64,000 nt of DNA from Candidatus Omnitrophota bacterium (GCA_029261065.1 JAJDCB010000030.1:48196-112195), one strand, 5' to 3'. Shown: positions 14,486 to 52,347, counted from the stretch's first letter. Notes: generated from the letters alone by a model not told the origin. Program-made: numbers and translations.

Positions 14486-14510
14486 TAAGTTTGTTTAGTG
14501 TTCATTAATG

Positions 14511-15769: not shown

Positions 15770-15850
15770 TTTAGCGTTCAAATTAATTTTTTATTGCGTC
15801 AATTTCGTGTATTATTTGGATGTTATGAAACTTTTTTGTTTGGAGGCCAG

Positions 15851-22937: not shown

Positions 22938-23020
22938 TAGTTGTTATCGCGCACGGTTCCCCGCTTTCGCGGGGATGACACATTTAGTATCAATAGGTTC
23001 ACGCTTTCACGGGAATGACA
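22908..23020. repeat. cluster of three ATyCCC-N8-GGGrAT palindromic repeat units
   Basis: Units are gtcgtccccgcgaaagcggggatc (22908-22931, +), gttccccgctttcgcggggatgacac (22956-22981, inverted) and ggttcacgctttcacgggaatgaca (22996-23020, inverted, degenerate). The same family occurs at 2170, about 26533 and 44276-44372. Confidence 0.7.
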
Positions 23021-37487: not shown

Positions 37488-37489
37488 TG

Positions 37490-37918
37490 TTATTTTCGTC
37501 TTAAGAGTAAAGCTTGTCCATATTCGTTGTTGGTTGTGCGCATGGCATTGAGCGTTTTAATTGTTTTAACAATATAAGGTGGATCCTCAGAGTCAATGAT
37601 ACTAAAGAGATGCGAGTCATCTTGCAACTCAAGAATAGTTGGCGCTAAAAAATATTGGGCCTGAAGAAGGATGCCGTCATTATCTTCTCGTGTAATAGCT
37701 TTGCTGGTTAGATAGCCGGCCCTTTTTTCGTTTTTAAGAAAAGGTTTAAATGTTTCAAATTGTGTGCCTGGTTCAAGATAAACGGGTAGGTTTAAATTTT
37801 CATGGTATTTCTTAATGCAATAGACGCCTGCATGAAAAATATTGTAAATGATTAAACACAGGCAAAGAGAGGCGATTGCTCCATTGAGGGAGAAGAGATA
37901 TTTGAGGGCCTGACGCAT
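37490..37918 (-). CDS. small membrane-anchored partner protein, paralog B
   Basis: 142 aa, homologous to 35698-36123. Confidence 0.4.
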   Translation of the reverse strand: MRQALKYLFSLNGAIASLCLCLIIYNIFHAGVYCIKKYHENLNLPVYLEPGTQFETFKPFLKNEKRAGYLTSKAITREDNDGILLQAQYFLAPTILELQDDSHLFSIIDSEDPPYIVKTIKTLNAMRTTNNEYGQALLLRRK

Positions 37919-37955
37919 GGACTTATTTTACAATTGTTAAGGAATTGTGTGGTAA

Positions 37956-39644
37956 TTATTTCAACTTTTCTTGAATCTCTGCGATCAGGTTATGATCAAA
38001 TTCATATTCTAATTCTTTGGCACGTAGGATGTGTGTTAATGCTTTTGGGTAATCCTTTTTGTGTCTATAAATTTTCGAAAGAAAATAATGCCCTTTTCCT
38101 GAGTCTTTATTCGTTTCTATGGCTTTAAGCCCTGATACTAAAGCCTCATCGTATCGATTTGATTTGATATATAAAAGACACTTATTAATAAGAGCTTTGG
38201 TGTATTCGGGATCATATTTAAGAGCTAAGTTGTAATTAACAACGGCGAGATCATATTTTTCTGAGTTTTGATATACAAGCCCAAGGTTGTAATGAGCATT
38301 TACATATTTAGGACGAAGCTTGACGGCTTTAGTAAAATCGGCGATCGCTAAATCGTATTGCTTTTTGCGAAGATAGATAACGCCTCTGTTATTAAGGATG
38401 AGAGGCGTGTTGGAAGAATATTCCATGGCTTTATCCCAAACCTTACCAGCATCTTTCCAGACTTTGTTTTGAAAGTGTGTTCGTGTGCCCAGTAATCCTA
38501 AGATGATGACGATACAAGTTGAAGCGATAAGAAAATGTTTTTGTTTGCGTTTTTTTGTTTGGGTTAATAATTGATCGGCTAGAGAACCTAATAAAAGACA
38601 GAGCCCTAAGCTGGGTAGGTACATAAAGCGATCAGCCACAACACTAACATGAACTTCTTCGGCCATGCGTAATAGGAAAAAGATGGAAAAGTAATAGTAG
38701 AGAAGAGCAAATAGGACTAAACGGTTTTTTCGAAAGCGAATTAGCAAATAGATAATAAGGGCAAAGACAATGACAGCAATGTTGTAATGAAGGTGATCAA
38801 ATCCAATGGGTTTGGGTAATTCATAAATTGGGCTTAAGTGAATGGGCAGGAAGAACTTTTGAATGTAAAATGTAAATGACCAGGTCCAGATCATGATTGC
38901 TTGGATAAAGTCTTTGGCTGGGACCCTCGCGTTAATTAAATAGGTAACTGCCGCGACAGGAACGATATAGAAAAAATGAGGAATTTTTTCTTTTAGAACA
39001 TTAAATGTGATCTTTCGGCCATGGTACCAGTCGAGGACCAGGAGAATAAAGGGTAAACTTAAGGCCATGGATTTTGCCAAGATGCTTAATAATCCTGCTA
39101 ACATTGATAAGATGAAAAATTTAATTTTTTTGTTGTCAAGATAATGCCAATAACTGCATAAGGCTAACATATAGAAAAAGGCATAAAGGACATCTTTTCT
39201 CTCCGTAATCCAAGCAACCGATTCGACATGCATCGGATGAATACCAAAGAGAAGGGCTGCCAGAAAAGCAGCCCGTATGCTGAGCCCCATCTGCAGGGCC
39301 AAAAGATAAATGAGGCCGCAGACGGCAACGTGTAAAAGGATGTTATTTAATATATAGAGAAAAGGCTTATCTTCAACGAAATGCCATTCTATGGCAAATG
39401 ATAAGACGCTTAAAGGAGCGTAAGTCTTTGTGACAGTTGATTTAAAGATATTTTTGATGCTCTGGAAACTAAGATGATGGACATCTACATTATCTGTCAC
39501 ATAAACATCATCATCCCAATTGGTGAATTCGTTTCCTAGATTTGAGGAAAAAAGGACAAATACAATGATTCCTAAGCAAATAGCCGTTAAAATGGCCTTT
39601 TTTTTGGGGATCGGGGGCGTAATAGTCTTAGATCGCTTTTTCAT
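37956..39644 (-). CDS. TMTC-like membrane glycosyltransferase: N-terminal GT-C/PMT-like TM domain + C-terminal TPR repeats
   Basis: Conserved N-terminal FTNWDDDVYVTDN (FxxDD) motif, about 10 TM helices, and a C-terminal run of TPR units (AHYNLGLVYQNSEKYDLA...). Confidence 0.55.
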   Translation of the reverse strand: MKKRSKTITPPIPKKKAILTAICLGIIVFVLFSSNLGNEFTNWDDDVYVTDNVDVHHLSFQSIKNIFKSTVTKTYAPLSVLSFAIEWHFVEDKPFLYILNNILLHVAVCGLIYLLALQMGLSIRAAFLAALLFGIHPMHVESVAWITERKDVLYAFFYMLALCSYWHYLDNKKIKFFILSMLAGLLSILAKSMALSLPFILLVLDWYHGRKITFNVLKEKIPHFFYIVPVAAVTYLINARVPAKDFIQAIMIWTWSFTFYIQKFFLPIHLSPIYELPKPIGFDHLHYNIAVIVFALIIYLLIRFRKNRLVLFALLYYYFSIFFLLRMAEEVHVSVVADRFMYLPSLGLCLLLGSLADQLLTQTKKRKQKHFLIASTCIVIILGLLGTRTHFQNKVWKDAGKVWDKAMEYSSNTPLILNNRGVIYLRKKQYDLAIADFTKAVKLRPKYVNAHYNLGLVYQNSEKYDLAVVNYNLALKYDPEYTKALINKCLLYIKSNRYDEALVSGLKAIETNKDSGKGHYFLSKIYRHKKDYPKALTHILRAKELEYEFDHNLIAEIQEKLK

Positions 39645-39844: not shown

Positions 39845-41524
39845 ATGAAACGTAATATTTGGTTTTTATGTATTGGCCTCATTATCGTTACTGGTATTTT
39901 TGCTAGAGTATATGATTTGAGTGGTCATTTTAGCCATATAGATGATATTGGTGTTGCCAAAACGATACTCGATCACAAGCTCGCTGATAAATCTCCTTTT
40001 CTAGCCGTTCCTTCCCGTTGGACATTCGCCCCTTTTCAATATTTTATTACCCCTTTTTTAGTCTCTATTGATCACACCTATCGTCAGCTTTTATTTTGGG
40101 GTCGTTTGCCTTCCTGTTTTTTTGGGATCTTAGGGATATTTTTTATGATTCAGTTTTATCGCCTTTATGAAGGTGATTTTTCTTATAAGACTCTTGTTCC
40201 GTTGTTCTTTTTTTGCTGTACCTGGGAAAACATCATATTCTCGAAACTTATGTATAATTATGCATTGGCTGTGACCGCATTCGTCGTATTGCTGATCCTT
40301 TATATGGATTATTTAAAGAAAATGAACTTTACTCTTAAAAAAGTTCTTTTTAACAGTTTGTGTTTAGGGGCGTTATGTTGGATGCATTATATTTTTCTTT
40401 ATTTTGTTCCTGTGTTTTATTTGTGTACATTTTTATATGCTTGCCAGTTCACGGAAAATAAGGGCAAAGTTGTTTTACAATATTGTTTAGGTGGGATCGT
40501 TGTCATTGTGTCTGTGTTTCCTTTGTGGTTTCTTTTTCTTCGGAAATTAATAGCCTCTGGACATTATGGGTTATATGGTTGGAATAGTGGAATTGATAAA
40601 GAATTTGTTTTTCATCTCCCAGAGGCGGGCTTCTTTCACGATATAGGTTATGCCGTTTCTTTTTTCTTTAAAAATTTCTTCTATATTTTTCAATTAAACA
40701 CAGGGTTTTTCCCAAACACACACTCCATTTTCCTACCTTTAAGTATAGTATTTCTTATTTTCTTTGTAATTGGGTTTTTTAGATTATTAACTCACAAAAA
40801 TTTGCATAAACGCTATTTAGGAATTTTCTTTGTTGTAACGATAATTGTATGGATTCTTTTAGTATGTACGCAGCGTCTTACTTTTTCACCAACGCGACAT
40901 AATTTTATTTTTATGCCGTTAATTGTTATTACACTGACCGAAGGGCTTTACTTGGTGCTTAAGGAGATTGGAAAGCGGATCGGGAGAAGTCATTTTAAGG
41001 ATTGGGGACAAGCAGTAATAATTGTAGGGTTGTTAATTTTGTTTGGATGTCATTATCAAACATTTCTTATCGAACGAAAAGATCGGTTAAATGAGCAAGA
41101 GATTTTAAAAATAGTTAAAACATACAATGTTGATACCATTATTCTGGCTGTTTGGACTCAACAAGTTGAGATGATGAAGAGTATTCGAGATCATTTTCAA
41201 TTTTATGAAACAGGATTTCGTGAAGATGCCAATATCTCGAAGGGGCCATCGACATATAAAAGGATTGCTTGGATTAGTCATCGAGATAAATTTAGTCCCA
41301 AATCTTACGAAAGGGCGAGATCAGCTGTAAATCATTATATTTATTACACTAATCCTAGACGTGTTAAGCGTAATAAGAAAGAATTGTCGTTGTTAAGATA
41401 TACTTTTAGATCTTATCGGGTGATTTATAAAAAGGTTATTGATTCAGATGTCGAACTCGAATTTGATAATAGAACACATAATGGAACGAATAATTTGTAT
41501 ATCTATATATTAGAGAGAAATTAA
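39845..41524 (+). CDS. polytopic membrane protein, GT-C-like (putative glycosyltransferase)
   Basis: 559 aa. First-loop acidic motif SHIDDIGVA and more than 10 TM helices. Confidence 0.4.
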   Translation: MKRNIWFLCIGLIIVTGIFARVYDLSGHFSHIDDIGVAKTILDHKLADKSPFLAVPSRWTFAPFQYFITPFLVSIDHTYRQLLFWGRLPSCFFGILGIFFMIQFYRLYEGDFSYKTLVPLFFFCCTWENIIFSKLMYNYALAVTAFVVLLILYMDYLKKMNFTLKKVLFNSLCLGALCWMHYIFLYFVPVFYLCTFLYACQFTENKGKVVLQYCLGGIVVIVSVFPLWFLFLRKLIASGHYGLYGWNSGIDKEFVFHLPEAGFFHDIGYAVSFFFKNFFYIFQLNTGFFPNTHSIFLPLSIVFLIFFVIGFFRLLTHKNLHKRYLGIFFVVTIIVWILLVCTQRLTFSPTRHNFIFMPLIVITLTEGLYLVLKEIGKRIGRSHFKDWGQAVIIVGLLILFGCHYQTFLIERKDRLNEQEILKIVKTYNVDTIILAVWTQQVEMMKSIRDHFQFYETGFREDANISKGPSTYKRIAWISHRDKFSPKSYERARSAVNHYIYYTNPRRVKRNKKELSLLRYTFRSYRVIYKKVIDSDVELEFDNRTHNGTNNLYIYILERN

Positions 41525-43588
41525 ATGTTAAACCAAATAGGATTGGATAGACTTTTGTATAAAGGGTTTGGATTGCAAACAAAGAAGGCGCAGGTTGCTT
41601 TTTTAGTGATACTGGCCATTAAAGTGTTGGTGATGATTCTATTTTCTTCAGATTATCAGAATCGCCTTTTTATTCCTTTTGTACAATATTTTATCGAAGT
41701 CTCTGGTAATCCTTGGGATTATTTCTATGCGCAAGGGAGATATGATCAATTCCCATATTCACCTGTTATGCTTTACTTTTTATCTATTTGTTATGCGCCT
41801 TTTTATTTATTAGGAGCTACCCATTCTTTATTAGGCCAGTTTTTCTTTAAATTACCAACGCTGTTTGCTGATCTCACCATTTTTTATTTATTGTGTCGTA
41901 TGTTTGAAGACAAAATGAAGGTGATGATTTATTATTTTGCAACACCTATCATTATTTATGCCTGTTATATGCATTCTCAGTTGGATCTTATACCAACGGC
42001 ATTACTTTTTTTATCGGTTTATTTATTAACTAAACGAAACTGTATCACCTCAGCGCTTGTATTCGGTTTGGCCGTGTGTGCCAAATTACATGTTGTTGCA
42101 GCTTTCCCGCTCCTGCTTATTTATTTACTAAAAACACACAAATTAAGAGGTGTTATGACTTTTTTATTCATAGCACCGTCAGTGTTTTTGATTATTGTTT
42201 TTCCTTTTTGGACAGAAGGTTATCAGCAGTTGGTGCTTAATAATTCCAAGCAAACGTTGATTTATGATTCTTACATCGCTGTAGGCAACCTGAAAGTATA
42301 CTTTACCGTTTTGTTGGTGGCCATTTTTTATGCGCGCGTCAGTGCTTTTCGTAAGATGAATAAAGATCTGCTCTACACATTTTTGGCCCTTATTTTTTCA
42401 ACGTTTGTATCATTGGCCCAACCCTCGCCGGGATGGTATGTGTGGTTGTTTCCTTTTCTTAGTATCTTTTTTATAAAATTTCATGAAAAAGCTCAACATA
42501 TTATTCGCTTATATGTGGCACTAAACGTGATGTATTTAGTTTATATGTTGCTTTTTTATTTACCCGAGTATCATGATCTTATTTTCTTGAAAACACCTAT
42601 TCATTTTAAGATCGATATTGAGAAATATCGTAATGTTAGTTTTACATTGCTCGAAGCTGTATTAATAGCGAGTATGTATGCTTTTTATAAGTTTGGAATC
42701 AGAAGTAACTTTTATTATAAGAAAAATACACCAGGCGTTATTGGGATTTCTGGTGATAGTGCCGCCGGTAAAACGACGATCCTATCTGATATAAGAAAGC
42801 TTTTTGGCCATCGTGTTTTAGAGTTAGAAGGGGACGCTGATCATAAGTGGGAACGCGATGATGAGCATTGGGAGGAGTTAACGCATTTAAATCCGAAAGC
42901 CAATTATCTTCATCGGCAATATAATGATATTCTTAATCTTCATAATCGTAATGCTGCTTTTCGTTGTGATTATGATCATAGTACGGGTAGGTTTACAAGT
43001 TCAAGAAAAGTAAGGGCAGATGACTATATTGTTTTAAGCGGACTACATGCTTTTTATCTTCCTAAAATGCGTAAGATTATTGATTTAAAAGTATTTGTTG
43101 ATACAGATGAAGGGTTGCGTCGATATTGGAAGGTTCAACGGGACACACGTGATCGTGGACGTAAAGTCAAAGATATCTTAAAGCAGATGGACCAGCGTGC
43201 TTTAGATGTTAAAAAATATATTCACCCTCAATATGATTTTGCAGATATTGTTGTTCAGTACTTTACGGATGATCCTATTAAATATGAAGAGCGTAATGCC
43301 AGGTATCATATGAAGTGTAAGGTTATTCTTGATTCAAACGTTTCTCTTCAAGCGATTGTTCATCGATTAGAAACAAAGCTTGATGTAACTTGGGACTATT
43401 CTCAAGATTTAAAAAATCAAAGTCTTATTGTGGATGGATGGCTTGAAAAAGAATATATCGCAAAGATGGCCCAAGAATATATAGTCAATTTAGAAGAATT
43501 GTTGGGTGATGATCCTATTTGGTTGGATGGTTACCGAGGTCTTGTTCAGTTTATGGTGTTGTTAATGTTAAGTGAGAAATTAAAATGA
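41525..43588 (+). CDS. fusion protein: N-terminal polytopic membrane domain (GT-C/DUF2029-like) + C-terminal uridine-kinase/PRK-family P-loop kinase domain
   Basis: C-terminal 230 aa: Walker A GISGDSAAGKTT and ...VLSGLHAFYL...VFVDTDEGLRRYWKVQRDTRDRGR...YDFADIVV, collinear with Udk. The N-terminal 400 aa has about 11 TM helices. Confidence 0.6.
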   Translation: MLNQIGLDRLLYKGFGLQTKKAQVAFLVILAIKVLVMILFSSDYQNRLFIPFVQYFIEVSGNPWDYFYAQGRYDQFPYSPVMLYFLSICYAPFYLLGATHSLLGQFFFKLPTLFADLTIFYLLCRMFEDKMKVMIYYFATPIIIYACYMHSQLDLIPTALLFLSVYLLTKRNCITSALVFGLAVCAKLHVVAAFPLLLIYLLKTHKLRGVMTFLFIAPSVFLIIVFPFWTEGYQQLVLNNSKQTLIYDSYIAVGNLKVYFTVLLVAIFYARVSAFRKMNKDLLYTFLALIFSTFVSLAQPSPGWYVWLFPFLSIFFIKFHEKAQHIIRLYVALNVMYLVYMLLFYLPEYHDLIFLKTPIHFKIDIEKYRNVSFTLLEAVLIASMYAFYKFGIRSNFYYKKNTPGVIGISGDSAAGKTTILSDIRKLFGHRVLELEGDADHKWERDDEHWEELTHLNPKANYLHRQYNDILNLHNRNAAFRCDYDHSTGRFTSSRKVRADDYIVLSGLHAFYLPKMRKIIDLKVFVDTDEGLRRYWKVQRDTRDRGRKVKDILKQMDQRALDVKKYIHPQYDFADIVVQYFTDDPIKYEERNARYHMKCKVILDSNVSLQAIVHRLETKLDVTWDYSQDLKNQSLIVDGWLEKEYIAKMAQEYIVNLEELLGDDPIWLDGYRGLVQFMVLLMLSEKLK

Positions 43589-44304
43589 GAGAGATCCCTT
43601 GGAGTCCTATAACTGGTTTATTGTTGGATTTGGATAATACGTTATACGATTACAACAAAGCACATCAACCAGCTTTACGAGAAGTTGTTCAGTTTTTATC
43701 TCAAAAGACTGGAGTTGTTAAAGAGGATATAGAAAAAGAATATGGTGTTGCTCGTGGGATGATTCATCAGCAGTTAAAGGGTAAAGCATCAAGTCATAAT
43801 CGTTTACTGTATTTTCAAAAGTTATTAGAAAATATAAATAAACCCATCATGCCTTATGCCTTAGAAGCGTATGATTTGTATTGGGATGTGTTTATTGAAC
43901 ATATTGTTTTGTTTGATGAGGTGATGTCTTTTTTAGAGAAAAATCAGGATAAAAGGATTTGTATCTTAACGGATTTAACAGCTGATATTCAGCATAAGAA
44001 GTTGCATAAGCTTGGATTAAGTTCTTATATTCACGCCCTTGTAACAAGTGAAGAAGTGGGCGTTGAGAAACCTGATCGCGGGATGTTTGAATGTGGGTTA
44101 AAGAAGTTAGGATGTATGAAAGAAGAGGTTTGTATGATCGGGGATAACTATGAGAAGGATGTGATGGGAGCGGTTGAGTTGGGTATGAAAGCGATTTGGG
44201 TGAATAAGGAGGGGGGGGAGCGTAGGGAGAGAGCTCTGGTTGTGGAGGTTGAGGATTTAAATTTTTCTTTAATGAGTTCCCCGCTTTCGCGGGGACGACA
44301 GTAG
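43585..44304 (+). CDS. HAD-superfamily phosphatase
   Basis: Motif I LLDLDNTLYD, motif III K, motif IV GDNYEKDV. The last about 10 codons (SSPLSRGRQ) come from palindromic repeat unit 44276-44300. Confidence 0.65.
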   Translation: MREIPWSPITGLLLDLDNTLYDYNKAHQPALREVVQFLSQKTGVVKEDIEKEYGVARGMIHQQLKGKASSHNRLLYFQKLLENINKPIMPYALEAYDLYWDVFIEHIVLFDEVMSFLEKNQDKRICILTDLTADIQHKKLHKLGLSSYIHALVTSEEVGVEKPDRGMFECGLKKLGCMKEEVCMIGDNYEKDVMGAVELGMKAIWVNKEGGERRERALVVEVEDLNFSLMSSPLSRGRQ

Positions 44305-44372
44305 TATGCGATCTCTGTTTTCGCGGGGACGACAACTATACTGTCATCCTCGCGAAAGCGGGGATCCGTGCG
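44276..44372. repeat. cluster of palindromic repeat units (gttccccgctttcgcggggacgaca; half-unit gttttcgcggggacgacaa; tgtcatcctcgcgaaagcggggatccgtgcg)
   Basis: Same ATCCCC-N8-GGGGAT family as at 22908-23020. It spans the end of the HAD gene and the start region of the next gene. Confidence 0.7.
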
Positions 44373-44395
44373 GTTTTACTGTTCAAAGAGTAACC

Positions 44396-46042
44396 ATGCA
44401 AATTATAATCCCTATGTCCGGCGTAGGCAAGCGTTTCATTGACGCTGGCTATAAAGATGTTAAACCGTTAATCGAAGTGGACGGTTTGCCTATCATTGCA
44501 CATGTTATCAACATGTTTCCGGGTGAAAATAATTTTACTTTTGTCTGCAATAAAACGCATTTACAAGAAACGCCAATGGAAGAAATTTTAAAAGGTCTTG
44601 CTCCTTTTGGAAAAATTATAGGGATCGAACCTCATAAGAAAGGTCCTGTCTATGCGGTGGCAGAAGTGTTTGACGCAATTGATGAAAGGGAGGAGACAAT
44701 CGTTAACTATTGTGATTTTTCAAAGTATTGGGATTATGATGGCTTTCTTTCTCATACAAGAGCGCGGCAGGCTGATGGTGCGATAGCAGCGTATAAGGGG
44801 TTTCATCCTCATATGTTAGGTTCTACCAATTATGCCTTTATGCGCGACGATCAACAATGGCTTTTAGAAATTCAAGAGAAAGAGCCGTTTACGGATAATC
44901 GTATGCAAGAATATGCTTCTGATGGAACGTATTATTTTAAAAACGGCGGACTCGTAAAAAAATATTTTCAGCAATTGATGGATGAGGATATAAACCTTAA
45001 AGGAGAATATTATATAAGTTTGGTCTATACGTTAATGCTGAGAGATGGTCTTAAGTCTTCTGTTTATGAAATACAACATATGTTGCAATGGGGGGAGCCT
45101 GGACATTTACAAGAGTATCAACAATGGTCAAAATATTTTTCTAAAATGGTTGATGAGACAAAAAGCATTATCAATAATGAAGAGACGATTAATCTAATAC
45201 CTTTAGCTGGACGTGGACAACGATTTGTTGATGAAGGCTATCAAACACCAAAACCTCTTATAGATGTCAGTGGAAAACCAATGATTGTTCAGGCGGCCTC
45301 TTATTTGCCTCAATCGGGGGCGCAAACTTTTATTTGTTTAGAAGATCATCTAAAAGAATATCCTATCAAAGTTGCTCTTCTAGAAGCCTATCCCCAAGCC
45401 AATATTGTTTCCCTTAATGAAGTTACAGAAGGTCAGGCGTGCACGTGTGAGAAAGGAATAAGAGAAGAGGATTATGATAAACCGTTGTTTATTGCCGCCT
45501 CAGATAATGGAATGATATGGTCTGAAAAAAAGTTGCAATCCTTATTGGATGATACCTCAATAGGTTGTCTCGTTTGGAGTTTCCGGCATCATCCTTCAAG
45601 CGCTCAAAATCCTCAAATGTATGGTTGGATTAAAACGGATGAGAAAGAAAATGTTTTAGGCGTCTCAGTTAAAGTTCCAATTTCAGATGATCCGTTTAAT
45701 GATCATGCCATCATCGGGGCTTTTTATTTTCGTAAAGCCAGATTTTTTATTGATGCATTAGAACGACTTTATAAGAGTGATGTTCGTGTTAATAATGAAT
45801 TTTATGTCGATAGCTGCATTAACGAAATTGTGGCCATGGGTTTAAAGGCAAAAGTCTTTGAGGTGGATCATTATATCTGTTGGGGAACGCCGAATGATTT
45901 AAAAACATACGAATACTGGCAAAGTTATTTTCATAAAAGTGATCAACATCCGTATTGTTTAGAGAAAGATCGGAGAATGGAGTTAAGTAAATTGAAGGAT
46001 TATGAAAAAAAATATTCTTCTTTTAAACAGGAGCACAATTAA
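44396..46042 (+). CDS. tandem double nucleotidyltransferase (two sugar-phosphate/alcohol-phosphate NTP-transferase domains, LicC/IspD-like)
   Basis: Duplicated N-terminal signatures IIPMSGVGKRF...KPLIEVDGLPII and LIPLAGRGQRF...KPLIDVSGKPMI. Start placed at MQIIIPMSG (ATG 44396), because the upstream 30 codons are repeat-derived. Confidence 0.55.
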   Translation: MQIIIPMSGVGKRFIDAGYKDVKPLIEVDGLPIIAHVINMFPGENNFTFVCNKTHLQETPMEEILKGLAPFGKIIGIEPHKKGPVYAVAEVFDAIDEREETIVNYCDFSKYWDYDGFLSHTRARQADGAIAAYKGFHPHMLGSTNYAFMRDDQQWLLEIQEKEPFTDNRMQEYASDGTYYFKNGGLVKKYFQQLMDEDINLKGEYYISLVYTLMLRDGLKSSVYEIQHMLQWGEPGHLQEYQQWSKYFSKMVDETKSIINNEETINLIPLAGRGQRFVDEGYQTPKPLIDVSGKPMIVQAASYLPQSGAQTFICLEDHLKEYPIKVALLEAYPQANIVSLNEVTEGQACTCEKGIREEDYDKPLFIAASDNGMIWSEKKLQSLLDDTSIGCLVWSFRHHPSSAQNPQMYGWIKTDEKENVLGVSVKVPISDDPFNDHAIIGAFYFRKARFFIDALERLYKSDVRVNNEFYVDSCINEIVAMGLKAKVFEVDHYICWGTPNDLKTYEYWQSYFHKSDQHPYCLEKDRRMELSKLKDYEKKYSSFKQEHN

Positions 46043-46755
46043 TGGCTAAGAAAAAACTTTCTATTGTTGTTCCTTGTTACAATGAAGAAAAAAATATTCC
46101 TCTTATTCTTAATCGCTTTCTTAAAGTTTTAGGTCGAGCTGATATTGAAGTTATTTTGGTCAATAATGGATCAACGGATGATAGTGAGAATGTTTTAAAG
46201 GAATTATTACCTCAGTATCCTTTTGCAAGATCGGTTAGAGTTGAAGTCAATCAAGGTTATGGTTTTGGTATTATTGCCGGGCTTAATGAAGCTGTTGGTG
46301 ATTATATCGGTTGGACGCACGCAGATATGCAAACAGATCCTAATGATGTGATGAGAGCGTTGGCTATCATTGAAGAAAAAGGGAGTCCATTAAACATTTT
46401 TATTAAGGGAGACCGCCGAAATCGACAATTGTTTGATCAAGTGTTTACCTGGGGGATGAGTTGTTTTGAGTCAATGTATTTGGGGAAACGATTATGGGAT
46501 ATTAATGCGCAACCAAATATTTTTTCTCGGTCATTTTATTCAACGTGGAAAAATCCTCCACATGATTTCTCGTTAGATTTGTATGCTTTATATATGGCTA
46601 GGCGGCAAGATATAGAAGTTGTTCGATTTGAAGTTGTTTTTCCCAAACGGATTTACGGTCAATCCAGTTGGAATACAGGATTAAAATCAAAAGGTAAGTT
46701 TATTAAAAGAACACTCGATTTTAGTGTCTCTTTAAAAAAGAGATTAAAAGTATGA
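46042..46755 (+). CDS. GT2 family glycosyltransferase, Dpm1/GtrB-like polyprenyl-phosphate sugar synthase
   Basis: LSIVVPCYNEEKNI with DxD-like NNGSTDDS. Short soluble catalytic-domain size (237 aa). Confidence 0.65.
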   Translation: MAKKKLSIVVPCYNEEKNIPLILNRFLKVLGRADIEVILVNNGSTDDSENVLKELLPQYPFARSVRVEVNQGYGFGIIAGLNEAVGDYIGWTHADMQTDPNDVMRALAIIEEKGSPLNIFIKGDRRNRQLFDQVFTWGMSCFESMYLGKRLWDINAQPNIFSRSFYSTWKNPPHDFSLDLYALYMARRQDIEVVRFEVVFPKRIYGQSSWNTGLKSKGKFIKRTLDFSVSLKKRLKV

Positions 46756-47357
46756 TTTACATCGCACATCGTATCAACTCTAAAGAAGAGTTAAAAAAAT
46801 TACCTCAAGAATTTGGTGTTGAATTAGATTTGCGTGATCATGGTGAGCAACTCATTGTTCAACATGACCCTTTTAAAGATGGAGAAAATTTTGAAGAGTA
46901 TCTAGGAGAATATCAACACGGGCTTATGATACTTAATATTAAAAGCGAACGCATTGAACATCGTGTTTTGGATTTGCTTGAAAAATATGCTATTAAAGAT
47001 TATTTCTTCCTCGATTCATCTTTTCCTATGGTTTATACATTAAGCCAATCGGGCGAGCACAATGTCGCTGTGCGTTTTTCGGAATTTGAAGGGATTGATA
47101 CTGTTTTAGCTATGAAAAAACAAGTCAATTGGGTTTGGGTCGATTGTTTTACAAAAATGCCTTTGGATCGAGATAAAAGTTTAGCTATTAAACAAGCGGG
47201 TTTAAAAATATGTTTAGTTTCTCCAGAGTTGCAAGGCCGAGATGATCAAATAGAGGCGTATGCCAAAGAAATTCTGGATGCTTCAATAGATGTTGATGCT
47301 ATTTGTACAAAAAGTTACAATATTGAGAGATGGCAATCCATTCTTAAACGAGCATAA
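46752..47357 (+). CDS. glycerophosphodiester phosphodiesterase (GDPD)-like domain protein
   Basis: IAHRIN...ELDLRDHGEQLIVQHD matches the GDPD TIM-barrel N-terminal catalytic His/Asp pattern. 201 aa. Confidence 0.45.
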   Translation: MIYIAHRINSKEELKKLPQEFGVELDLRDHGEQLIVQHDPFKDGENFEEYLGEYQHGLMILNIKSERIEHRVLDLLEKYAIKDYFFLDSSFPMVYTLSQSGEHNVAVRFSEFEGIDTVLAMKKQVNWVWVDCFTKMPLDRDKSLAIKQAGLKICLVSPELQGRDDQIEAYAKEILDASIDVDAICTKSYNIERWQSILKRA

Positions 47358-47360: not shown

Positions 47361-48431
47361 ATGAAACAAGAAATTACGATAAACGATCCTTTAGAAAAAT
47401 ATCAGAAGGAGCTTTCTGATATTAAGTTTGCTCTTGATGCTTCGACCATTGTTGCGATGACCGACCAAAAGGGCAAGATCACTTATGTTAATGATAAGTT
47501 CTGCAAAATATCTCAGTATAGTCGTGATGAACTCATAGGAGAAGATCATCGCATTATTAATTCGAACCATCACCCTAAAGAGTTTTTTAAAAATTTGTGG
47601 GATACAATTAAAAAGGGAGAGGTTTGGAGTGGAGAAATTAAGAATAGAACGAGAAGGGGGACTTATTATTGGGTTAGCACGACCATTGTTCCTTTTCTAG
47701 ATTTTGAAGGTAAGCCCTATCAGTATGTGGCTATTCGTCATGAAATAACAAAACGTAAAGAGATGGAGGCGGCTGTTAAGCAGTTGCCACAACGCATTAT
47801 TCATGCGCAGGAAAAAGAAAGAGAAGGGATCTCGCGAGAAATTCATGATGACTTAGGGCAATCCTTGGCTATGCTAAAGATGTCGATTCAGTCGACGATT
47901 CATAATGATCAACTGAGACCGGAAATAGCGTCATACGAGAAGATATTGCAATATCTAAATAAGATTATTGATAAAACTCGCCATTTAGCTTCTGGCTTAA
48001 GGCCTTCTACATTAGAGGTTGTTGGATTAACGACAGCTTTAAAAACTCTTATTAACGATTTTAAGACGTATTCTTCAATTGAAGTTCATTTTCATTGTAT
48101 TGATCTAGAAGATTTTAATTTTAAAGGTGAGGTGATAAATATTTACAGAATTGTTCAAGAAGCCTTAAATAACATTACTAAACATTCTCAAGCGAGTACT
48201 CTTAACATTGATATTAACTATTGTGATCAGATGTTAAATCTTAGCATTAAAGACAATGGAGTTGGCATGGAGATAGAGAGTAGTTCTTTTGAAAATAGTG
48301 TAGTTGGTGGCTTGGGGCTTACGACGATAAAAGAACGTGTTAGCATGCTTAAAGGAGAAATGTTCATTAAATCAAAATCTAATCAAGGAACAAAACTTTT
48401 GTTTCGTATCCCAGTTGATAAGAAAGGTTGA
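47361..48431 (+). CDS. PAS sensor histidine kinase (HisKA_3 / NarX-type)
   Basis: PAS ([26 protein letters not shown]), H-box [17 protein letters not shown], and HATPase N/G boxes ([18 protein letters not shown]). Confidence 0.75.
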
Positions 48432-49081
48432 ATGTAATGGATCGGTTACGTATTATCATCGCAGATGATCATCAAATATTTAGAGAAGGTTTAAAAAATT
48501 TAATTGAGTCCAACGAGAACTATTCTGTTGTTGGAGAAGCAAATGATGGAGAAAAGCTTTTAGAGCTTGTGAAGCATAAAAAGAGCGATGTGATTATTTC
48601 TGACATATCAATGCCCAATATGGATGGGTTAAGTGCTATAAAAAAAATTTCAGAACAATTTCCAGATATTAAAATCTTAGTTCTTTCGATGCTAAAAGAC
48701 AATGTGCATTTAAAGAATGCCCTTAGTCATGGTGCGGCGGGTTACATTTTAAAAGATGATGCCTATGATGAGTTGCAAATGGCCATTGAGCGAGTGAGAA
48801 AAGGGAAACGATACATATCATCGGCCTTATCACAGTTATTTGTCGAAAGGCATGTTTGTGCAGATAACGATCTTGACGCCCCTTCATTAGAAATTCTTAC
48901 GAAAAGAGAGCGAGAGGTTCTTAAATATGTTGCAAAGGGTTATCCGAACAAGTTGATAGCAAGCAGGCTAAAAATTAGTTCACGCACAGTTGAGGCCCAC
49001 CGTGGTAATCTTTCCAAAAAGCTTGGCATTTTTAACACAGCAGGTTTAGTCAAATATGCCCTTTCTAAAACCCTCCTTTAG
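48428..49081 (+). CDS. response regulator, NarL/LuxR family
   Basis: REC domain (IIADDH..., D in VIISDISMP) + C-terminal LuxR HTH ([36 protein letters not shown]). Confidence 0.8.
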
Positions 49082-49204
49082 TTAAACTTCGTAATAATAC
49101 TTAGATTGTTTGTGGAACCTCCTTATTTCGGATAAGTCCTATTTGTCTTAAAATATTAGTGTAAGGTTAACTTAATAGAGGAATGATTTAAAAAGGATGA
49201 TTTT

Positions 49205-49594
49205 ATGAAAACAAAGATTTTATTAATCGAAGACAATGATGATTTTAGGAATGCGGTGAAGGGCTACTTAAATGAACAAATACTAGATATTGAGATTTTT
49301 GAAGCTTGTACAGGGGAAATGGGTGTAACGAAAGCTTCTTTAGTTAAGCCTGATATTGCTATTGTTGATCTAAACTTGCCGCATGCTAATGGGTTTGAAG
49401 TCATTAAAATGTTGAAAGAAGATCATCCGAATTGTTTTCTTATTGTATTAACCATGCTTGAGGTAGAACAGTTTAAGCAGTTGGCCAAAGAGTTGAACGT
49501 TGTTGATTTTGTTGGGAAAAGTGAGCTTTTTGATCGTCTCGTACCTGTCGTTAATAAATATGTAGAAAAATGCAGAGAAGCCAGTATGGTCTAG
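49205..49594 (+). CDS. single-domain response regulator (receiver only)
   Basis: KILLIEDN...DIAIVDLNLP...VLTM receiver signature. 129 aa. Confidence 0.65.
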   Translation: MKTKILLIEDNDDFRNAVKGYLNEQILDIEIFEACTGEMGVTKASLVKPDIAIVDLNLPHANGFEVIKMLKEDHPNCFLIVLTMLEVEQFKQLAKELNVVDFVGKSELFDRLVPVVNKYVEKCREASMV

Positions 49595-50026: not shown

Positions 50027-51043
50027 ATGATTAAAGTAGGTATTATTGGATGTGGGTATTGGGGGCCGAATCATATACGTATTTTTTCTCAATTGGCTAA
50101 CTCTCAAGCTGTGATGTGTGCTGATTTGGATGAAAATCGGTTGGCAAATGTTAAAGATTTATACCCTAATCTCCAAACAACAACAAATTATAAAGATATT
50201 TTGACCAATGATGAGATAAGGGCTGTGTGTATCGCATCACCTACCAATACCCATTTTAATCTCACCAAAGAGGCTTTAGAGCATGGCAAGCATGTTCTTG
50301 TAGAAAAACCTCTTGCTTTACATACAAAAGAATGTCAGGAACTCAAGGAGTTAGCTGAAAAAAAGAAGTTGGTGCTTATGGTGGGCCACGTTTTTCTTTT
50401 TAATTCCAGCATCCAATGGCTTAAAGATTACATTAAAGCCGGAGAGATGGGACAAATTTATTATGCTTATTGTACGCGAACCAATTTAGGACCATTTCGT
50501 TATGATGTTAATGCGTTATGGGATTTAGCCCCACACGATATTTCTATCTTAAATTATTTATTTGAAGGTTCTCCTATTAATGTCTCGGGACGCGGTCAGA
50601 AATCATTAGGCAGTTCGCTTGAAGATTTATCATTTGCTACTATGGAATACGAACAAGGCATTATTGCAAACGTTCATGTGAGTTGGTTGGATCCAAAGAA
50701 GGTGAGGCAGATGACAATTGTTGGAGAGAAAAAGATGGTGACGTGGGATGATTTAGATGGTTTAGGTCCGATTAAGCTTTATGATAAACATGTTGAGAAA
50801 ACCTCAACCTATTATGCGACGTACGGGGAGTTTCAGTTGCTTTCTAAAGAAGGAAGTATCACGTTACCCAATATCTCAGCAAGTGAACCTTTAAAGGCGC
50901 AGGGTCAGTATTTTATGGAGTGTGTGGAGAAGGTAAAAAATCCTGATCTAGCCGATGCGCAAAAAGGATTGGAGGTTGTTAAAACGTTGTGTGGTATTCA
51001 AGAATCCATGGATTTAAAGGGAACTTGTGTTGCCATTATATAG
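50027..51043 (+). CDS. Gfo/Idh/MocA family NAD(P)-dependent sugar oxidoreductase
   Basis: Rossmann KVGIIGCGYWGPNH, then EKPLA and the C-terminal alpha/beta domain typical of the family. Confidence 0.7.
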   Translation: MIKVGIIGCGYWGPNHIRIFSQLANSQAVMCADLDENRLANVKDLYPNLQTTTNYKDILTNDEIRAVCIASPTNTHFNLTKEALEHGKHVLVEKPLALHTKECQELKELAEKKKLVLMVGHVFLFNSSIQWLKDYIKAGEMGQIYYAYCTRTNLGPFRYDVNALWDLAPHDISILNYLFEGSPINVSGRGQKSLGSSLEDLSFATMEYEQGIIANVHVSWLDPKKVRQMTIVGEKKMVTWDDLDGLGPIKLYDKHVEKTSTYYATYGEFQLLSKEGSITLPNISASEPLKAQGQYFMECVEKVKNPDLADAQKGLEVVKTLCGIQESMDLKGTCVAII

Positions 51044-51055
51044 AGAGATAAAGCT

Positions 51056-51619
51056 ATGAGTTATTTTAAACACGAAAAAGCGATTGTTCACCCAGAAGCC
51101 GAAATAGGCGAGGGGACACGTTTATGGGCGAACACTAATATTCAGCAGGGCGCTACGATTGGCAAAGATTGTAATATTTGTGATGGAAGTTTTGTAGAGA
51201 GTGGCGCGATTGTTGGTAATCATGTCACGGTCAAACATCATGTTTCTATTTTTGATGGTGTCACGATTGAAGATGATGTATTTATCGGATCCAATATTGC
51301 CTTTATTAACGATCGGTATCCTCGGAGTAATAACGGGGGTGAGTGGACGTTAGAGAAGACTACGGTTAAAGAAGGTGCGACGTTAGGAAGTAATGTTGTT
51401 ATACTTTGCGGGTTAAGTGTTGGGCGTTACGCTGTTGTTGGGGCGGGAAGTGTTGTAACAAAAGATGTTGATGATTACACGATTGTAGGTGGTAATCCTG
51501 CGCGTCAAATGGGTTATGCTTGTGTGTGCGGTAAAAAGTTAGATAAGGAATTATCTTGTAGTTGTGGGAAAAAATATTTATTGAAAGATAAAGCGCTTGT
51601 GATGGATGATCAAAAATGA
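51056..51619 (+). CDS. hexapeptide-repeat (left-handed beta-helix) sugar N-acetyltransferase with C-terminal Cys4 motif
   Basis: Repeating [LIV]G.... hexads (IGKDCNICDGSFVESGAIVGNHVTV...). C-terminal CVCGKK...CSCGKK. Confidence 0.65.
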   Translation: MSYFKHEKAIVHPEAEIGEGTRLWANTNIQQGATIGKDCNICDGSFVESGAIVGNHVTVKHHVSIFDGVTIEDDVFIGSNIAFINDRYPRSNNGGEWTLEKTTVKEGATLGSNVVILCGLSVGRYAVVGAGSVVTKDVDDYTIVGGNPARQMGYACVCGKKLDKELSCSCGKKYLLKDKALVMDDQK

Positions 51620-52347
51620 GCAAAGTTCTCGTCTCCCCGGTCGCGTTCAACGAAAAAATTAAGTTACAAAATGTTATAAAACGATTTTTGAAAAGTGAGT
51701 TTAACGGTACGTTTGATTATTTGATCGTGGATGATGCCTCAACAGATGGGCAAACAGAGATGATTGCCGGGTATAAAGATCAAGGGGTTATGACCCTTAG
51801 ACATCAAACACGTCAAGGCGTTGGTTCGGCCATTCGTACAGCTATACGGTATGCTCAAAAACATGATTACGATGTATTGGTGATTATGGCCGGTAATGAT
51901 AAAGATAACCCAGAGGAAATTGCAAGATTAACAGATCCGATCATTAAAGACGGGTGCGATCTTGTCCAAGGATCTCGTTATTTAGGAAAAAATGGCATTG
52001 GTGGGGATATGCCTTTTTATCGAAAGATTGCAACGAGATTACATCCGATGTTACTTTCTTTAATTTCTGGACGTCGTGTTACAGATTCGACAAATGGTTT
52101 TAGGGCTTTTCGTTTATCTCTTTTTAATGATGAACGCATTAACATTGATCAATCTTGGTTAGATCAATATGAGCTGGAACCTTATTTGTTATATAAAGTT
52201 ATTAAATTAGGTCATAAATTTCAAGAAGCTTCTGTAACAAAGATATATCCAGCTAAGAAGTTGGGTTATACAAAAATGCGTCCTTTAATCGGTTGGTGGA
52301 GTATATTGCGCCCGCTGATTTATTTAGGATTGGGTATAAGAAAATAA
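51616..52347 (+). CDS. GT2 family glycosyltransferase, Dpm1-like
   Basis: DYLIVDDASTDGQT and LVQGSRY motifs. 243 aa. Confidence 0.6.
   Translation: MSKVLVSPVAFNEKIKLQNVIKRFLKSEFNGTFDYLIVDDASTDGQTEMIAGYKDQGVMTLRHQTRQGVGSAIRTAIRYAQKHDYDVLVIMAGNDKDNPEEIARLTDPIIKDGCDLVQGSRYLGKNGIGGDMPFYRKIATRLHPMLLSLISGRRVTDSTNGFRAFRLSLFNDERINIDQSWLDQYELEPYLLYKVIKLGHKFQEASVTKIYPAKKLGYTKMRPLIGWWSILRPLIYLGLGIRK

Follow-up and report, generated by a model that had tools for sequence, protein, structure and literature searches.

What kind of product calls for two consecutive nucleotidyltransferase domains in one protein, together with a glycosyltransferase and a phosphodiesterase-like enzyme? The question is raised by three genes at positions 44396-47357 of a 64,000-nt stretch of DNA from a Candidatus Omnitrophota bacterium (the window), which encode a 548-aa tandem nucleotidyltransferase (NT), a 237-aa GT2 glycosyltransferase and a 201-aa GDPD-fold protein (ORF3). 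A preliminary description of this DNA had reported the three ORFs with overlapping stops and starts, and these were found exactly where it had placed them: the NT stop and the GT2 start overlap by 1 nt (TAATG), and the GT2 stop and the ORF3 start by 4 nt (ATGA). The three-gene arrangement is real, but it is half of a larger cassette whose upstream genes had been left out. Positions 39845-47357 form one operon, in which all genes are tightly packed on the plus strand:

39845 to 41524, plus strand: 559-aa polytopic membrane protein, first gene of the operon (ORF; hydropathy, ~10-12 hydrophobic segments)
41525 to 42730, plus strand: N-terminal membrane domain of a 687-aa fusion protein, predicted GT-C fold, GT87/GT50-like (orthologue matches, family profile)
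42731 to 43588, plus strand: C-terminal phosphoribulokinase-like P-loop kinase domain of the same 687-aa fusion (PF00485, PRK07429, PDB, motifs)
43585 to 44304, plus strand: HAD-IA phosphatase with an intact DxDxT motif (PF13419, NF053830)
44272 to 44366, no strand assigned: REP-like palindromic unit of 22 nt, three copies (repeat sequence)
44396 to 45160, plus strand: tandem NT, N-terminal half, aa 1-255 (family match, alignment, model)
45161 to 46042, plus strand: tandem NT, C-terminal half, aa 256-548 (family match, alignment, model)
46042 to 46755, plus strand: soluble 237-aa GT2, putative polyprenyl-phosphate glycosyl synthase of the Dpm1/GtrB/ArnC type (PF00535, PDB)
46752 to 47357, plus strand: ORF3, 201-aa minimal GDPD-fold protein (fold model, motifs)

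The gene for the 559-aa protein ends at 41524 and that for the fusion starts at 41525, while the fusion and HAD genes overlap by 4 nt. The REP-like copies sit in the operon's only non-overlapping gene junction, where most orthologous cassettes carry the gene for a class II aldolase. The NT ORF spans 44306-46042; its orthologues all begin with MQIIIPMSG, which corresponds to position 44396 and to a protein of 548 aa, and the 30-codon extension upstream of this start falls within the REP-like palindrome. The GT-C/phosphoribulokinase fusion and the HAD phosphatase were absent from the preliminary description, and the aldolase and GtrA, present in orthologous cassettes, were not visible to its reader.

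We compared the operon with 82 loci from other genomes, representing more than 12 phyla. NT is encoded in all 82, the aldolase in 73, GT2 in 71 (median identity, 63%), ORF3 in 67, the HAD phosphatase in 61, the GT-C/kinase fusion in 63 and GtrA in 49; many of the loci without GT2 or ORF3 are cut by contig ends, and the HAD gene is missing beside the cassette in a few (L021, L071, L077). The canonical gene order, PRK-HAD-ALD-NT-GtrA-GT2-ORF3, is kept in dozens of genomes, and the proteins are ~60% identical between phyla. The NT-GT2-ORF3 arrangement, which recurs in the same order, is far beyond chance. Carriers include Leptospira, Campylobacterota, Chlamydiota, gut Melainabacteria and Paenibacillus; the full set also resides on a 33-kb E. 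coli IncR plasmid, where it adjoins IS26, and on the Hirschia plasmid pHbal01. The cassette is widespread and horizontally mobile. Searches of the literature and of family databases returned no paper or curated family describing it, and neither the tandem NT nor the minimal GDPD-fold enzyme has a curated family of its own.

Two consecutive NTP-transferase signatures had been noticed in NT, and both are present, at aa 6-34 (PMSGVGKRF..KPLIEVDGLPII) and at aa 269-297 (PLAGRGQRF..KPLIDVSGKPMI). The Pfam model NTP_transferase (PF00483) matched two stretches of the protein with 42.7 bits (cutoff, 21.2), and hhalign aligned the two halves as homologues (probability, 99.95%; 26% identity across 243 columns). 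Mapping of the catalytic residues onto GlmU, by sequence alignment and inspection, located in each half the GxGxR loop with its downstream conserved Lys, the Asp after strand 4 that binds metal, the lysine of (E)K-x-P and the E-Y-Y motif. Across 22 orthologues there is no variation in the pairs R13/R276, K23/K286, D107/D370, K162/K426 and E204-x-Y206/E468-x-Y470. Invariant positions of the N half comprise G9-x-G11-x-R13, K23, D107, E161-K162, E204-Y205-Y206 and W232-G233-x-P235, and those of the C half G272-x-G274-x-R276, K286, D370, K426, E468-x-Y470-x-D472 and W496-G-T-P-x-D501, where E468-F-Y470 is the counterpart of the sugar-binding motif E204-Y-Y206. Both halves keep all of the canonical residues, including the nucleotide-binding Arg and Lys, and both are predicted to be catalytically competent, with active sites of the GlmU/RmlA type. 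The long invariant motifs are specific to each half (HPHMLGxTNYAF versus NPQMYGW), suggesting two distinct substrate pockets.

An AF2 model of NT (pLDDT, 89) gave 4evw, GlmU, GMPPB, UGPase and RmlA as its best Foldseek matches (E values from 1e-15 to 1e-12), and NT scored at most 47 bits against the NCBIfam equivalogs for GlmU, RmlA, GalU, MurU, HddC, KdsB and IspD, whose cutoffs are 155-718. The sequence matches of the C-terminal half include HddC, the GDP-heptose enzyme. The closest solved structure to each half is PDB 4EVW, a 'nucleoside-diphosphate-sugar pyrophosphorylase' of Vibrio cholerae RC9 from structural genomics, and the motif PM(A/S)GxGxRF..AGYxxPK is common to both proteins. However, 4EVW has one domain in place of the tandem, and because it has no known substrate it is uninformative on the function of NT.

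ORF3 gave no Pfam or NCBIfam match, even at E 10, and no PDB match with either the single sequence or a profile; hhalign against an approximate UgpQ sequence gave an E value of 0.14. The earlier label of a GDPD-like protein holds for the fold and for the catalytic motifs, both His residues included, but not for sequence similarity to PF03009. The model adopts the GDPD TIM-barrel fold, with B. subtilis GlpQ (5t91) among its matches, and its His-Arg, Glu-x-Asp and His-Asp motifs follow strands 1, 2 and 3. H6-R7, E24-x-D26 and H38 are invariant in 35 sequences and D39 is nearly so, the catalytic residues being assigned by motif position rather than by coordinate superposition; a Rhizobium relative, 32% identical to ORF3, has the canonical AHRG..GVETDVRD..AHD. 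GlpQ-type GDPDs trim glycerol-phosphate polymers, and the cyclising phospholipases D and sphingomyelinases D are relatives of the GDPDs. Compared with GlpQ, UgpQ and these relatives, ORF3 is shorter by ~50 residues and has no insertion domain, shows no detectable sequence similarity to Pfam GDPD, and is cytoplasmic and linked or fused to nucleotidyltransferases and glycosyltransferases. It has no signal peptide or TM segment, as expected of a cytoplasmic protein, and in other organisms it occurs fused to GT2, to GT61, to a single NT or, in either order, to the tandem NT. This location and these fusions to NTs and Leloir GTs indicate a role in donor synthesis, not in extracellular trimming. We regard ORF3 as a putative phosphodiesterase, or cyclic-phosphodiesterase, whose substrate would be a sugar-phosphate diester, and the genomic context argues for a substrate other than glycerophosphodiesters.

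The comparison of GT2 with polyprenyl-phosphate-sugar synthases is supported by a PF00535 match of 83 bits and by its best PDB matches, ArnC (E = 1.5e-12), DPMS (1.2e-9) and GtrB (1.7e-9). When aligned to these structures, GT2 has H-A-D rather than D-A-D at the DxD position, with the second Asp kept, and hydropathy analysis detected no TM segment. Its genetic partners are the GT-C domain of the same operon and, in the orthologous cassettes that carry it, GtrA, which is fused to NT in one case (P0094); the window operon has neither GtrA nor the aldolase. We regard GT2 as a putative polyprenyl-phosphate glycosyl synthase that would use an NDP-sugar to glycosylate polyprenyl phosphate.

The membrane domain of the fusion protein had no Pfam match in the window sequence. 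Among 12 orthologues, GT87 matched three (best E, 9e-7) and ALG6/ALG8 matched one, and the family profile matched GPI mannosyltransferase 1 (PIG-M) weakly over 294 residues in the PDB (E = 0.003). F76-P77-Y78, P111, D116 and D154 are invariant. Based on the orthologues and on this weak profile match, we predict a GT-C glycosyltransferase that uses a polyprenyl-phosphate-sugar donor. The kinase domain scored 115 bits against PF00485 (cutoff, 22), and among NCBIfam models it scored 173 bits against PRK07429 (cutoff, 236) versus 82 bits against uridine kinase; its best PDB match was the cyanobacterial phosphoribulokinase (PRK) 6hzk, with an E value of 4e-30 versus 1e-14 for uridine kinase. Alignment to the Synechococcus PRK revealed that the P-loop and the Ru5P-binding residues are kept, and the motifs D437..H440..R444, Y483-x-H485-x-x-G488 and K536-x-x-R539-D540..R544 are fully or almost fully conserved in 60 orthologues (D540 in 59 of the 60). 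The window protein has Ser in place of the Walker-B Glu of PRK, at a position where family members carry Ser, Ala or Glu.

The HAD phosphatase matched PF13419 with 81 bits. Its best NCBIfam match, ahead of the next one by 39 bits, was NF053830, ribulose-1,5-bisphosphate 5-phosphatase (154.7 bits; E = 3e-45; cutoff, 330), and its best PDB match was N-acylneuraminate-9-phosphatase. We assign it as a putative ribulose-1,5-bisphosphate 5-phosphatase. Since both the kinase and the HAD protein fall below the curated PRK and RuBP-phosphatase cutoffs, they are relatives rather than members of these families and may act on another sugar phosphate. The class II aldolase of the cassette is nearest to rhamnulose-1-P aldolase; this aldolase-family protein probably alters the stereochemistry of the pentulose 1-phosphate in most cassettes, and the window lineage has lost it.

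Together, the fusion, the HAD phosphatase, the aldolase and GtrA point to a pentulose-phosphate-derived sugar that travels via a lipid carrier to the GT-C domain. We propose, with a probability of roughly one half, that the operon is a self-contained, three-component extracytoplasmic glycosylation cassette, in which such a sugar is handled by a soluble arm that supplies the precursor and a membrane arm that delivers it. Judging from family relationships, the PRK-like kinase would convert ribulose 5-phosphate to ribulose 1,5-bisphosphate, and the HAD enzyme would strip the 5-phosphate to yield ribulose 1-phosphate, now free to close into a furanose ring. NT and ORF3 would turn this into a nucleotide-activated donor by two separate nucleotidyl transfers: the first would give NDP-1-ribulofuranose, ORF3 would recruit the adjacent anomeric OH to close a 1,2-cyclic phosphate and open this to ribulofuranose 2-phosphate, and the second would give NDP-2-ribulofuranose, the true glycosyl donor. 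A shift of the phosphate to the anomeric position of the ketofuranose could explain why two NT steps and a phosphodiesterase are present. Following the known three-component logic, the soluble GT2 would then load the sugar onto polyprenyl phosphate, the lipid-linked sugar would be flipped (by GtrA in most cassettes), and the kinase-fused GT-C domain would attach it to an extracytoplasmic acceptor. The substrate's identity, the sequence of reactions, the acceptor and the passage through a cyclic phosphate are inferences; for the last of these there is chemical precedent only. There is also a tension in that the NT fold resembles enzymes acting on anomeric sugar-1-phosphates, whereas the phosphate of Ru1P is non-anomeric; the literature searched reported no nucleotide-activated pentulose.

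Cousin modules occur outside the cassette. A P. aeruginosa plasmid carries an NT-phosphodiesterase-HAD-NT module whose second, separate NT has lost the conserved Lys, and in Rhizobium an ORF3-like protein, a HAD protein and a tandem NT are encoded beside a GT41, indicating that the soluble module feeds Leloir-type GTs. It is conceivable, but unlikely, that a tandem or paired NT, a GDPD-fold enzyme and a HAD phosphatase constitute a general, unrecognised nucleotide-activation route for neutral 2-ketoses, in which a ketose 1-phosphate would be nucleotidylated, converted by the GDPD-like enzyme through a 1,2-cyclic phosphate to the anomeric 2-phosphate and, by a second transfer, made into an NDP-2-ketofuranose. 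The starting compound would be Ru1P in the cassette, formed from Ru5P by the PRK-like kinase and the 5-phosphatase; in the kinase-less cousins, it may be fructose 1-phosphate derived from fructose 1,6-bisphosphate. Such a route would supply the missing donors for ribulo-, xylulo- and fructofuranose residues of bacterial glycans.

Parts of the proposed pathway have counterparts in known systems. In the GtrA/GtrB/Gtr(type) O-antigen glucosylation of Shigella and Salmonella, and in the mycobacterial PpgS/Rv3632/Rv3779 system, the sugar is linked to polyprenyl phosphate by a Dpm1-type GT2, exported through a flippase of the GtrA family and finally transferred, outside the cytoplasm, by a GT-C enzyme. 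The cassette likewise contains a Dpm1-type GT2, a GT-C domain and, in 49/82 cases, GtrA. By contrast, its GT-C is fused to a kinase, its GT2 has no membrane anchor and the window copy has no GtrA; moreover, Gtr systems use housekeeping UDP-sugars, whereas the cassette brings its own kinase, phosphatase, tandem NT and phosphodiesterase. In ADP- and GDP-heptose biosynthesis, a kinase (HldA or HddA), the HAD phosphatase GmhB and a nucleotidyltransferase (HldC or HddC) act in the same logic, by which a distally phosphorylated sugar is phosphorylated, loses its distal phosphate to a HAD enzyme and is then nucleotidylated. The cassette differs in having a PRK-type P-loop kinase instead of a ribokinase or GHMP kinase, no isomerase, an extra NT activity and a GDPD-fold enzyme.

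A HAD enzyme of this kind forms cyclised Ru1P in haloarchaea, where it shares an operon with a class II Ru1P aldolase (PMC9700705). This non-carboxylating pentose bisphosphate pathway thus resembles the cassette in pairing a HAD protein of the same best-match family with a class II aldolase, but it is catabolic and archaeal and obtains RuBP from R15P isomerase, whereas in the cassette RuBP would come from a PRK-like kinase, Ru1P is proposed to serve biosynthesis and the HAD protein is below the equivalog cutoff. Three-component pentofuranose systems employ PRPP and a UbiA-type phosphoribosyltransferase, followed by dephosphorylation of the lipid-linked product, a MATE flippase and GT136 (Kelly, Whitfield et al. 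2024, PMC11127046). These systems and mycobacterial decaprenyl-phospho-arabinose synthesis share with the cassette, as proposed here, a cytoplasmic lipid-linked pentose that is flipped and used by a GT-C enzyme, with an auxiliary epimerase diversifying the sugar; unlike them, the cassette has no PRPP enzyme, and its route would run through a nucleotide sugar and GT2.

The same architecture could instead deliver an aldopentofuranose, with the kinase phosphorylating the anomeric O1 of ribose-5-P or arabinose-5-P, the HAD enzyme removing the 5-phosphate, one NT half forming NDP-ribofuranose or NDP-arabinofuranose, just as happens in the ADP-heptose pathway, and the other half and ORF3 serving otherwise, for example in recycling a cyclic-phosphate breakdown product of the labile furanosyl nucleotide. 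This would suit the resemblance of the NT halves to anomeric sugar-1-P nucleotidyltransferases, HddC included, and the sub-cutoff scores of the kinase and HAD protein, whose substrates may differ; lipid-linked pentofuranose donors for GT-C enzymes are, in addition, established (PMC11127046). Nevertheless, we consider it somewhat unlikely: three independent components (the PRK motifs, the RuBP-phosphatase best match and the relative of ketose-1-P aldolases) indicate ribulose phosphates, and it gives no necessary role to the strictly co-conserved second NT half and ORF3.

The preliminary description suggested phosphodiester-linked head-group chemistry. Applied to the cassette, NT would make an activated phospho-alcohol (such as NDP-1-ribulose, akin to CDP-ribitol or CDP-glycerol) as well as an NDP-sugar, and the GDPD-like enzyme would trim or edit the resulting decoration. 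The two competent NT sites and the GDPD fold, with GlpQ among the matches, agree with it, and Ru1P is chemically a primary phospho-alcohol. However, the conserved transferases, a Dpm1-type GT2 and a GT-C, both transfer glycosyl groups, the conserved genes of the cassette include no CDP-alcohol phosphotransferase and no TagF-like, LicD-like or Stealth transferase, and ORF3 is cytoplasmic and fused to NTs and Leloir GTs. This reading is improbable, and nothing points to the pairing of a CDP-alcohol with an NDP-sugar that had been suggested, or to phosphocholine or glycerol-phosphate head groups.

It had also been suggested that one of the NT domains is regulatory. One half might be a pseudo-subunit of structural or regulatory function and only the other catalytic, a situation known from GMPPA/GMPPB and from the large and small subunits of ADP-glucose pyrophosphorylase, given that sugar nucleotidyltransferases are commonly dimers, that human GMPPA/GMPPB are among the structural matches and that the second NT of the P. 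aeruginosa cousin lacks the conserved Lys. In this family, such a role is quite improbable because the active sites are conserved in both halves, all catalytic residues being invariant across phyla, and because each half has its own long invariant motif. Finally, a catabolic pentose-bisphosphate shunt unrelated to the adjoining NT, GT2 and GDPD genes would have the same three activities (kinase, HAD and aldolase) as the haloarchaeal pathway (PMC9700705), but is hardly credible, as the kinase is covalently fused to GT-C in 60 loci, one gene order is kept across more than 12 phyla and on plasmids, and the completing aldolase is absent from the window lineage.

If the proposed glycosylation cassette exists as we describe it, thousands of bacteria in more than 12 phyla would have in common a portable module through which a sugar derived from a pentulose, and drawn from the pentose-phosphate pathway, is added to a component of the envelope. 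Such surface modifications typically alter recognition by phages, antibodies and antimicrobial peptides. The literature searched gave no account of neutral-ketose activation for glycan synthesis, for which a cassette that combines a phosphodiesterase with two nucleotidyl transfers offers a concrete candidate that can be tested, directly tractable owing to its presence on a 33-kb E. coli plasmid.

The 559-aa membrane protein that opens the operon had no Pfam or NCBIfam match, and a homologue is encoded in only four of the 82 related loci, including the sister locus L003. It is a lineage-specific partner of the cassette, possibly a second GT-C-type transferase or a substitute for the flippase.

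Six ORFs on the same strand, with ends that touch or overlap, occupied positions 39845-47357 in the ORF listing:

Genes of the cassette in the window
39845-41524, +, polytopic membrane protein, 559 aa
41525-43588, +, GT-C/phosphoribulokinase (PRK)-like fusion, 687 aa
43585-44304, +, HAD phosphatase, 239 aa
44306/44396-46042, +, tandem nucleotidyltransferase (NT), 578/548 aa
46042-46755, +, GT2, 237 aa
46752-47357, +, GDPD-fold protein (ORF3), 201 aa

The preliminary description had recognized the last three genes (44396-47357) as a set with overlapping ends and had read two NTP-transferase signatures in the 548-aa protein. Both points were confirmed: the NT stop and the GT2 start share TAATG, the GT2 stop and the ORF3 start share ATGA, and Pfam matched NTP_transferase twice in the 548-aa NT, as well as Glycos_transf_2 in the 237-aa GT2. 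The NT start was placed at 44396 because all orthologues open with MQIIIPMSG or a similar sequence; the mechanically called ORF starts at 44306 and is 30 codons longer, and this extension lies inside a REP-like palindrome. The 22-nt palindromic unit, TCCCCGCTTTCGCGGGGACGAC, was present in five copies in the window versus zero expected, three at the HAD/NT junction (44272-44366) and two near 22.9 kb (22908-22979), and looks like a dispersed repeat of the REP/MITE type. The HAD gene takes its final codons and its stop from the first copy of this unit, and the remaining copies at the junction account for the spurious N-terminal stretch of the NT ORF.

The two halves of NT (aa 1-255 and 256-548) are homologous to each other (hhalign probability 99.95%, 26% identity over 243 columns), so the tandem protein goes back to an old internal duplication. 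Comparison of 22 orthologues from many phyla revealed invariant residues in both halves: the Arg of the GxGxR loop (R13, R276), the Lys that follows this loop (K23, K286), an Asp that follows strand 4 (D107, D370), the Lys of the EK-x-P type (K162, K426), and an E-Y/F-Y motif (E204-Y206, E468-Y470), the counterpart in the alignment of the sugar-binding GEYY of GlmU. The nucleotide-binding Arg and Lys that the preliminary description expected in each half are thus present throughout, and its alternative of one active and one regulatory domain was rejected as unlikely for the NT family, since both active sites are invariant. Long invariant motifs private to each half suggest two different pockets. 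The AF2 model (pLDDT 89) matched the single-domain NT 4evw, GlmU, GMPPB, UDP-glucose pyrophosphorylases and RmlA; in the NCBIfam search every equivalog fell well short of its cutoff.

ORF3 has at least 3,882 homologues, with about 65% identity across phyla, and its relatives form 1,798 cluster representatives at 50% identity, yet searches of Pfam and NCBIfam placed it in no family of either library. Its AF2 model is very confident (pLDDT 95.6). Conservation is complete at H6-R7, E24-x-D26 and H38 and almost complete at D39; mapped by motif position on the model, these residues stand at the ends of strands 1-3, the GDPD positions of HR(G), E-x-D and HD. A Rhizobium plasmid encodes a relative (32% identity) that reads AHRG...GVETDVRD...AHD, the canonical GDPD pattern. 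Pfam, NCBIfam, PDB phmmer and a PDB profile search gave no sequence link between ORF3 and GDPD, nor did hhalign against an approximate UgpQ sequence establish one. The assignment is thus based on the fold, the motifs and the bridging homologue, not on a direct sequence match. Judged by its predicted structure, ORF3 is a trimmed GDPD-fold enzyme that kept its catalytic residues, and the GDPD-like protein with catalytic His of the preliminary description stands by virtue of the fold and the invariant H6 and H38, but as a protein outside PF03009 by sequence. Elsewhere ORF3 is fused to the tandem NT (in both orders), to a single NT domain, to GT2 and to GT61. In three comparison proteins (P0259, P0265 and P0290) GT61 glycosyltransferase domains are joined to ORF3-like domains; plant GT61 includes pentofuranosyl (arabinofuranosyl) transferases.

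The C-terminal domain of the 687-aa fusion, spanning aa ~402-687, scored 173 bits against NCBIfam PRK07429 versus 82 against uridine kinase, its best PDB match was a cyanobacterial PRK (4e-30, versus 1e-14 for uridine kinase), and the PRK substrate motifs were invariant or nearly so in 60 orthologues of the fusion. The 239-aa HAD best matched the NCBIfam ribulose-1,5-bisphosphate 5-phosphatase (155 bits, under the 330-bit cutoff), and both the kinase and the HAD assignments are best matches scoring under curated family cutoffs. The N-terminal 400 residues of the fusion are polytopic; Pfam GT87 was matched by 3 of 12 orthologues and the family profile of the membrane domain matched GPI mannosyltransferase 1, which makes this domain a putative GT-C enzyme, for the window protein by way of its orthologues and the family profile. 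GT2, which has no TM segment, has ArnC, DPMS and GtrB as its closest solved relatives. The class II aldolase that accompanies the cassette in other genomes is nearest to rhamnulose-1-P aldolase; neither an aldolase nor a GtrA was found anywhere in the 64-kb window.

To follow the spread of the cassette, we scanned one genome per species and found the tandem NT in 315 of 185,579 species. Carriers include Bacteroidota, Bacillota, Melainabacteria, Dependentiae, Chlamydiota, Campylobacterota, Bdellovibrionota, Spirochaetota, Cloacimonadota, Planctomycetota, Nitrospirota, Omnitrophota, SAR324 and Gammaproteobacteria. Synteny was analyzed in 82 loci, 80 from the species scan and 2 from Paenibacillus, with the window proteins and two from Paenibacillus as tblastn queries. 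The tandem NT was detected in 82/82 loci, the aldolase (ALD) in 73/82, GT2 in 71/82, ORF3 in 67/82, the PRK fusion in 63/82, HAD in 61/82 and GtrA in 49/82. The order was nearly always PRK-HAD-ALD-NT-GtrA-GT2-ORF3, many gaps being contig ends, and PGAP named all of the proteins generically. One protein (P0094) fuses the tandem NT to GtrA. The window copy groups with that of a Planctomycetales MAG (L003): both are devoid of aldolase and GtrA, in place of which they have the 559-aa membrane protein, and in the window copy the aldolase slot is filled by three REP-like units. In a Bacteroidetes MAG (L042, 10001-11653) the tandem NT stands alone, with no other cassette gene within 10 kb on either side.

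The whole cassette also occurs on Hirschia baltica pHbal01 and on a 33-kb IncR plasmid of E. coli, next to IS26. It was present in 2 of 5,426 complete E. coli genomes, plasmid-borne both times. Two plasmid records with it are NZ_CP145712.1 (L083), with a complete eight-gene cassette at 6022-14984 and an NT of 46% identity, and NZ_JCAPUP010000005.1; both plasmids are ~33 kb and, where typed, IncR, the cassette is flanked by IS26, and the host isolates came from human stool and from a bullfrog. The E. coli plasmid cassette is a ready experimental system.

Distant cousin modules (27-32% identity) were found on plasmids. In that of the P. aeruginosa PA83 plasmid (L085, 9001-11831; NT-phosphodiesterase-HAD-NT), which adjoins LPS genes, two NTs encoded by separate genes surround an ORF3-like phosphodiesterase and a HAD phosphatase, and the second NT lacks the conserved Lys. 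In an attempt to pair these NTs (NT-a and NT-b) with the halves of the tandem protein, NT-a matched both to an equal degree. Scandinavium and Acetobacter have clusters with NT and HAD genes that are related to the Pseudomonas module. On a Rhizobium rhizoryzae plasmid (L084, 7606-11183), an ORF3-like gene, HAD and a tandem NT lie beside GT41 and an ALTTAQ-repeat protein. No kinase was found beside these modules (L084, L085 and two further distant loci, L088 and L089). NT, GDPD-like protein and phosphatase thus form a recurrent soluble module; since it serves different Leloir-type glycosyltransferases, its predicted product is a nucleotide-sugar donor.

A catabolic pentose shunt was rejected, as the GT-C fusion and the synteny speak against it. 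In the donor-forming pathway that we propose instead, the PRK-like kinase would convert ribulose 5-phosphate to ribulose 1,5-bisphosphate (RuBP), from which HAD would remove the 5-phosphate. This order of kinase, distal phosphatase and NT parallels ADP/GDP-heptose synthesis, where a kinase and then a distal phosphatase precede the nucleotidyltransferase. A related haloarchaeal HAD removes the 5-phosphate of RuBP to give cyclised ribulose 1-phosphate (Ru1P), and its gene adjoins that of a class II Ru1P aldolase (PMC9700705). The heptose parallel leaves a second NT activity and the phosphodiesterase unaccounted for, and the phosphate of Ru1P is on C1, not on the anomeric C2. Since these three features are unexplained by the parallel, we put forward a cyclic-phosphate route, purely as a hypothesis: the first NT would activate the 1-phosphate of Ru1P, the GDPD-like enzyme would form and then open a 1,2-cyclic phosphate to yield the 2-phosphate, and the second NT would make the real glycosyl donor. 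Chemical precedents are the decay of UDP-glucose to glucose 1,2-cyclic phosphate, the opening of ADP-ribose 1'',2''-cyclic phosphate to the 1''-phosphate and the formation of cyclic phosphates by GDPD-fold phospholipases D.

For delivery, GT2, a flippase and the GT-C would hand the sugar on, an arm that resembles Gtr systems and pentofuranose systems (PMC11127046) and is already known in kind. Monoderm as well as diderm bacteria carry the cassette, and it travels on plasmids, which argues for an acceptor that is widely shared or for a partner protein that varies (559 aa in the window, 586 aa in E. coli). In a full-text literature search we found no paper describing the cassette and no report of a nucleotide-activated pentulose, the nearest literature being conceptual neighbours only (PMC11127046, PMC9700705). 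The supply arm, that is, the PRK-like kinase fused to GT-C, the RuBP-phosphatase-like HAD, the tandem NT and the minimal GDPD-fold enzyme, was not found in the searched full-text literature or in curated family libraries. We give a modest probability to the view that the soluble module activates 2-ketoses in a manner that is new in kind.

The surroundings of the cassette are rich in lipid-linked-sugar-dependent transferases. A divergent minus-strand operon (34262-39644) adjoins it and contains a TPR membrane protein (37956-39644), a PMT-family GT-C protein (36120-37487), a 479-aa protein without Pfam match and, at 35698-36123 and 37490-37918, paralogous proteins of 141/142 aa, which were considered as GtrA and rejected as single-TM proteins. 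A further PMT_2 protein lies at 23976-25172, and the neighbouring PMT-type transferases may use the donor of the cassette. Four nucleotides past ORF3 begins a PAS/HisKA_3 histidine kinase; a LuxR-type response regulator overlaps it, and a lone receiver protein comes next (47361-49594). A second contig with the window locus (L087) repeats this arrangement, which was not seen beside the cassette in other genomes (1/82 loci), so that any regulatory link would be lineage-specific. Three genes that overlap at their ends (50027-52347) encode a Gfo/Idh/MocA oxidoreductase, a hexapeptide acyltransferase and a second GT2, a set typical for synthesis and transfer of an acetamido sugar (WbpB/WbpD-like). 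Near the start of the window, the minus strand encodes, after tRNA-His (4595-4671), a large serine recombinase (4660-6231) and then a P4-family primase (6632-8833). Next comes a segment of reduced G+C (0.31-0.33 versus ~0.36); the stretch 4595-16000 is probably a mobile element integrated at tRNA-His. An IS481-family transposase lies at 16919-18115.
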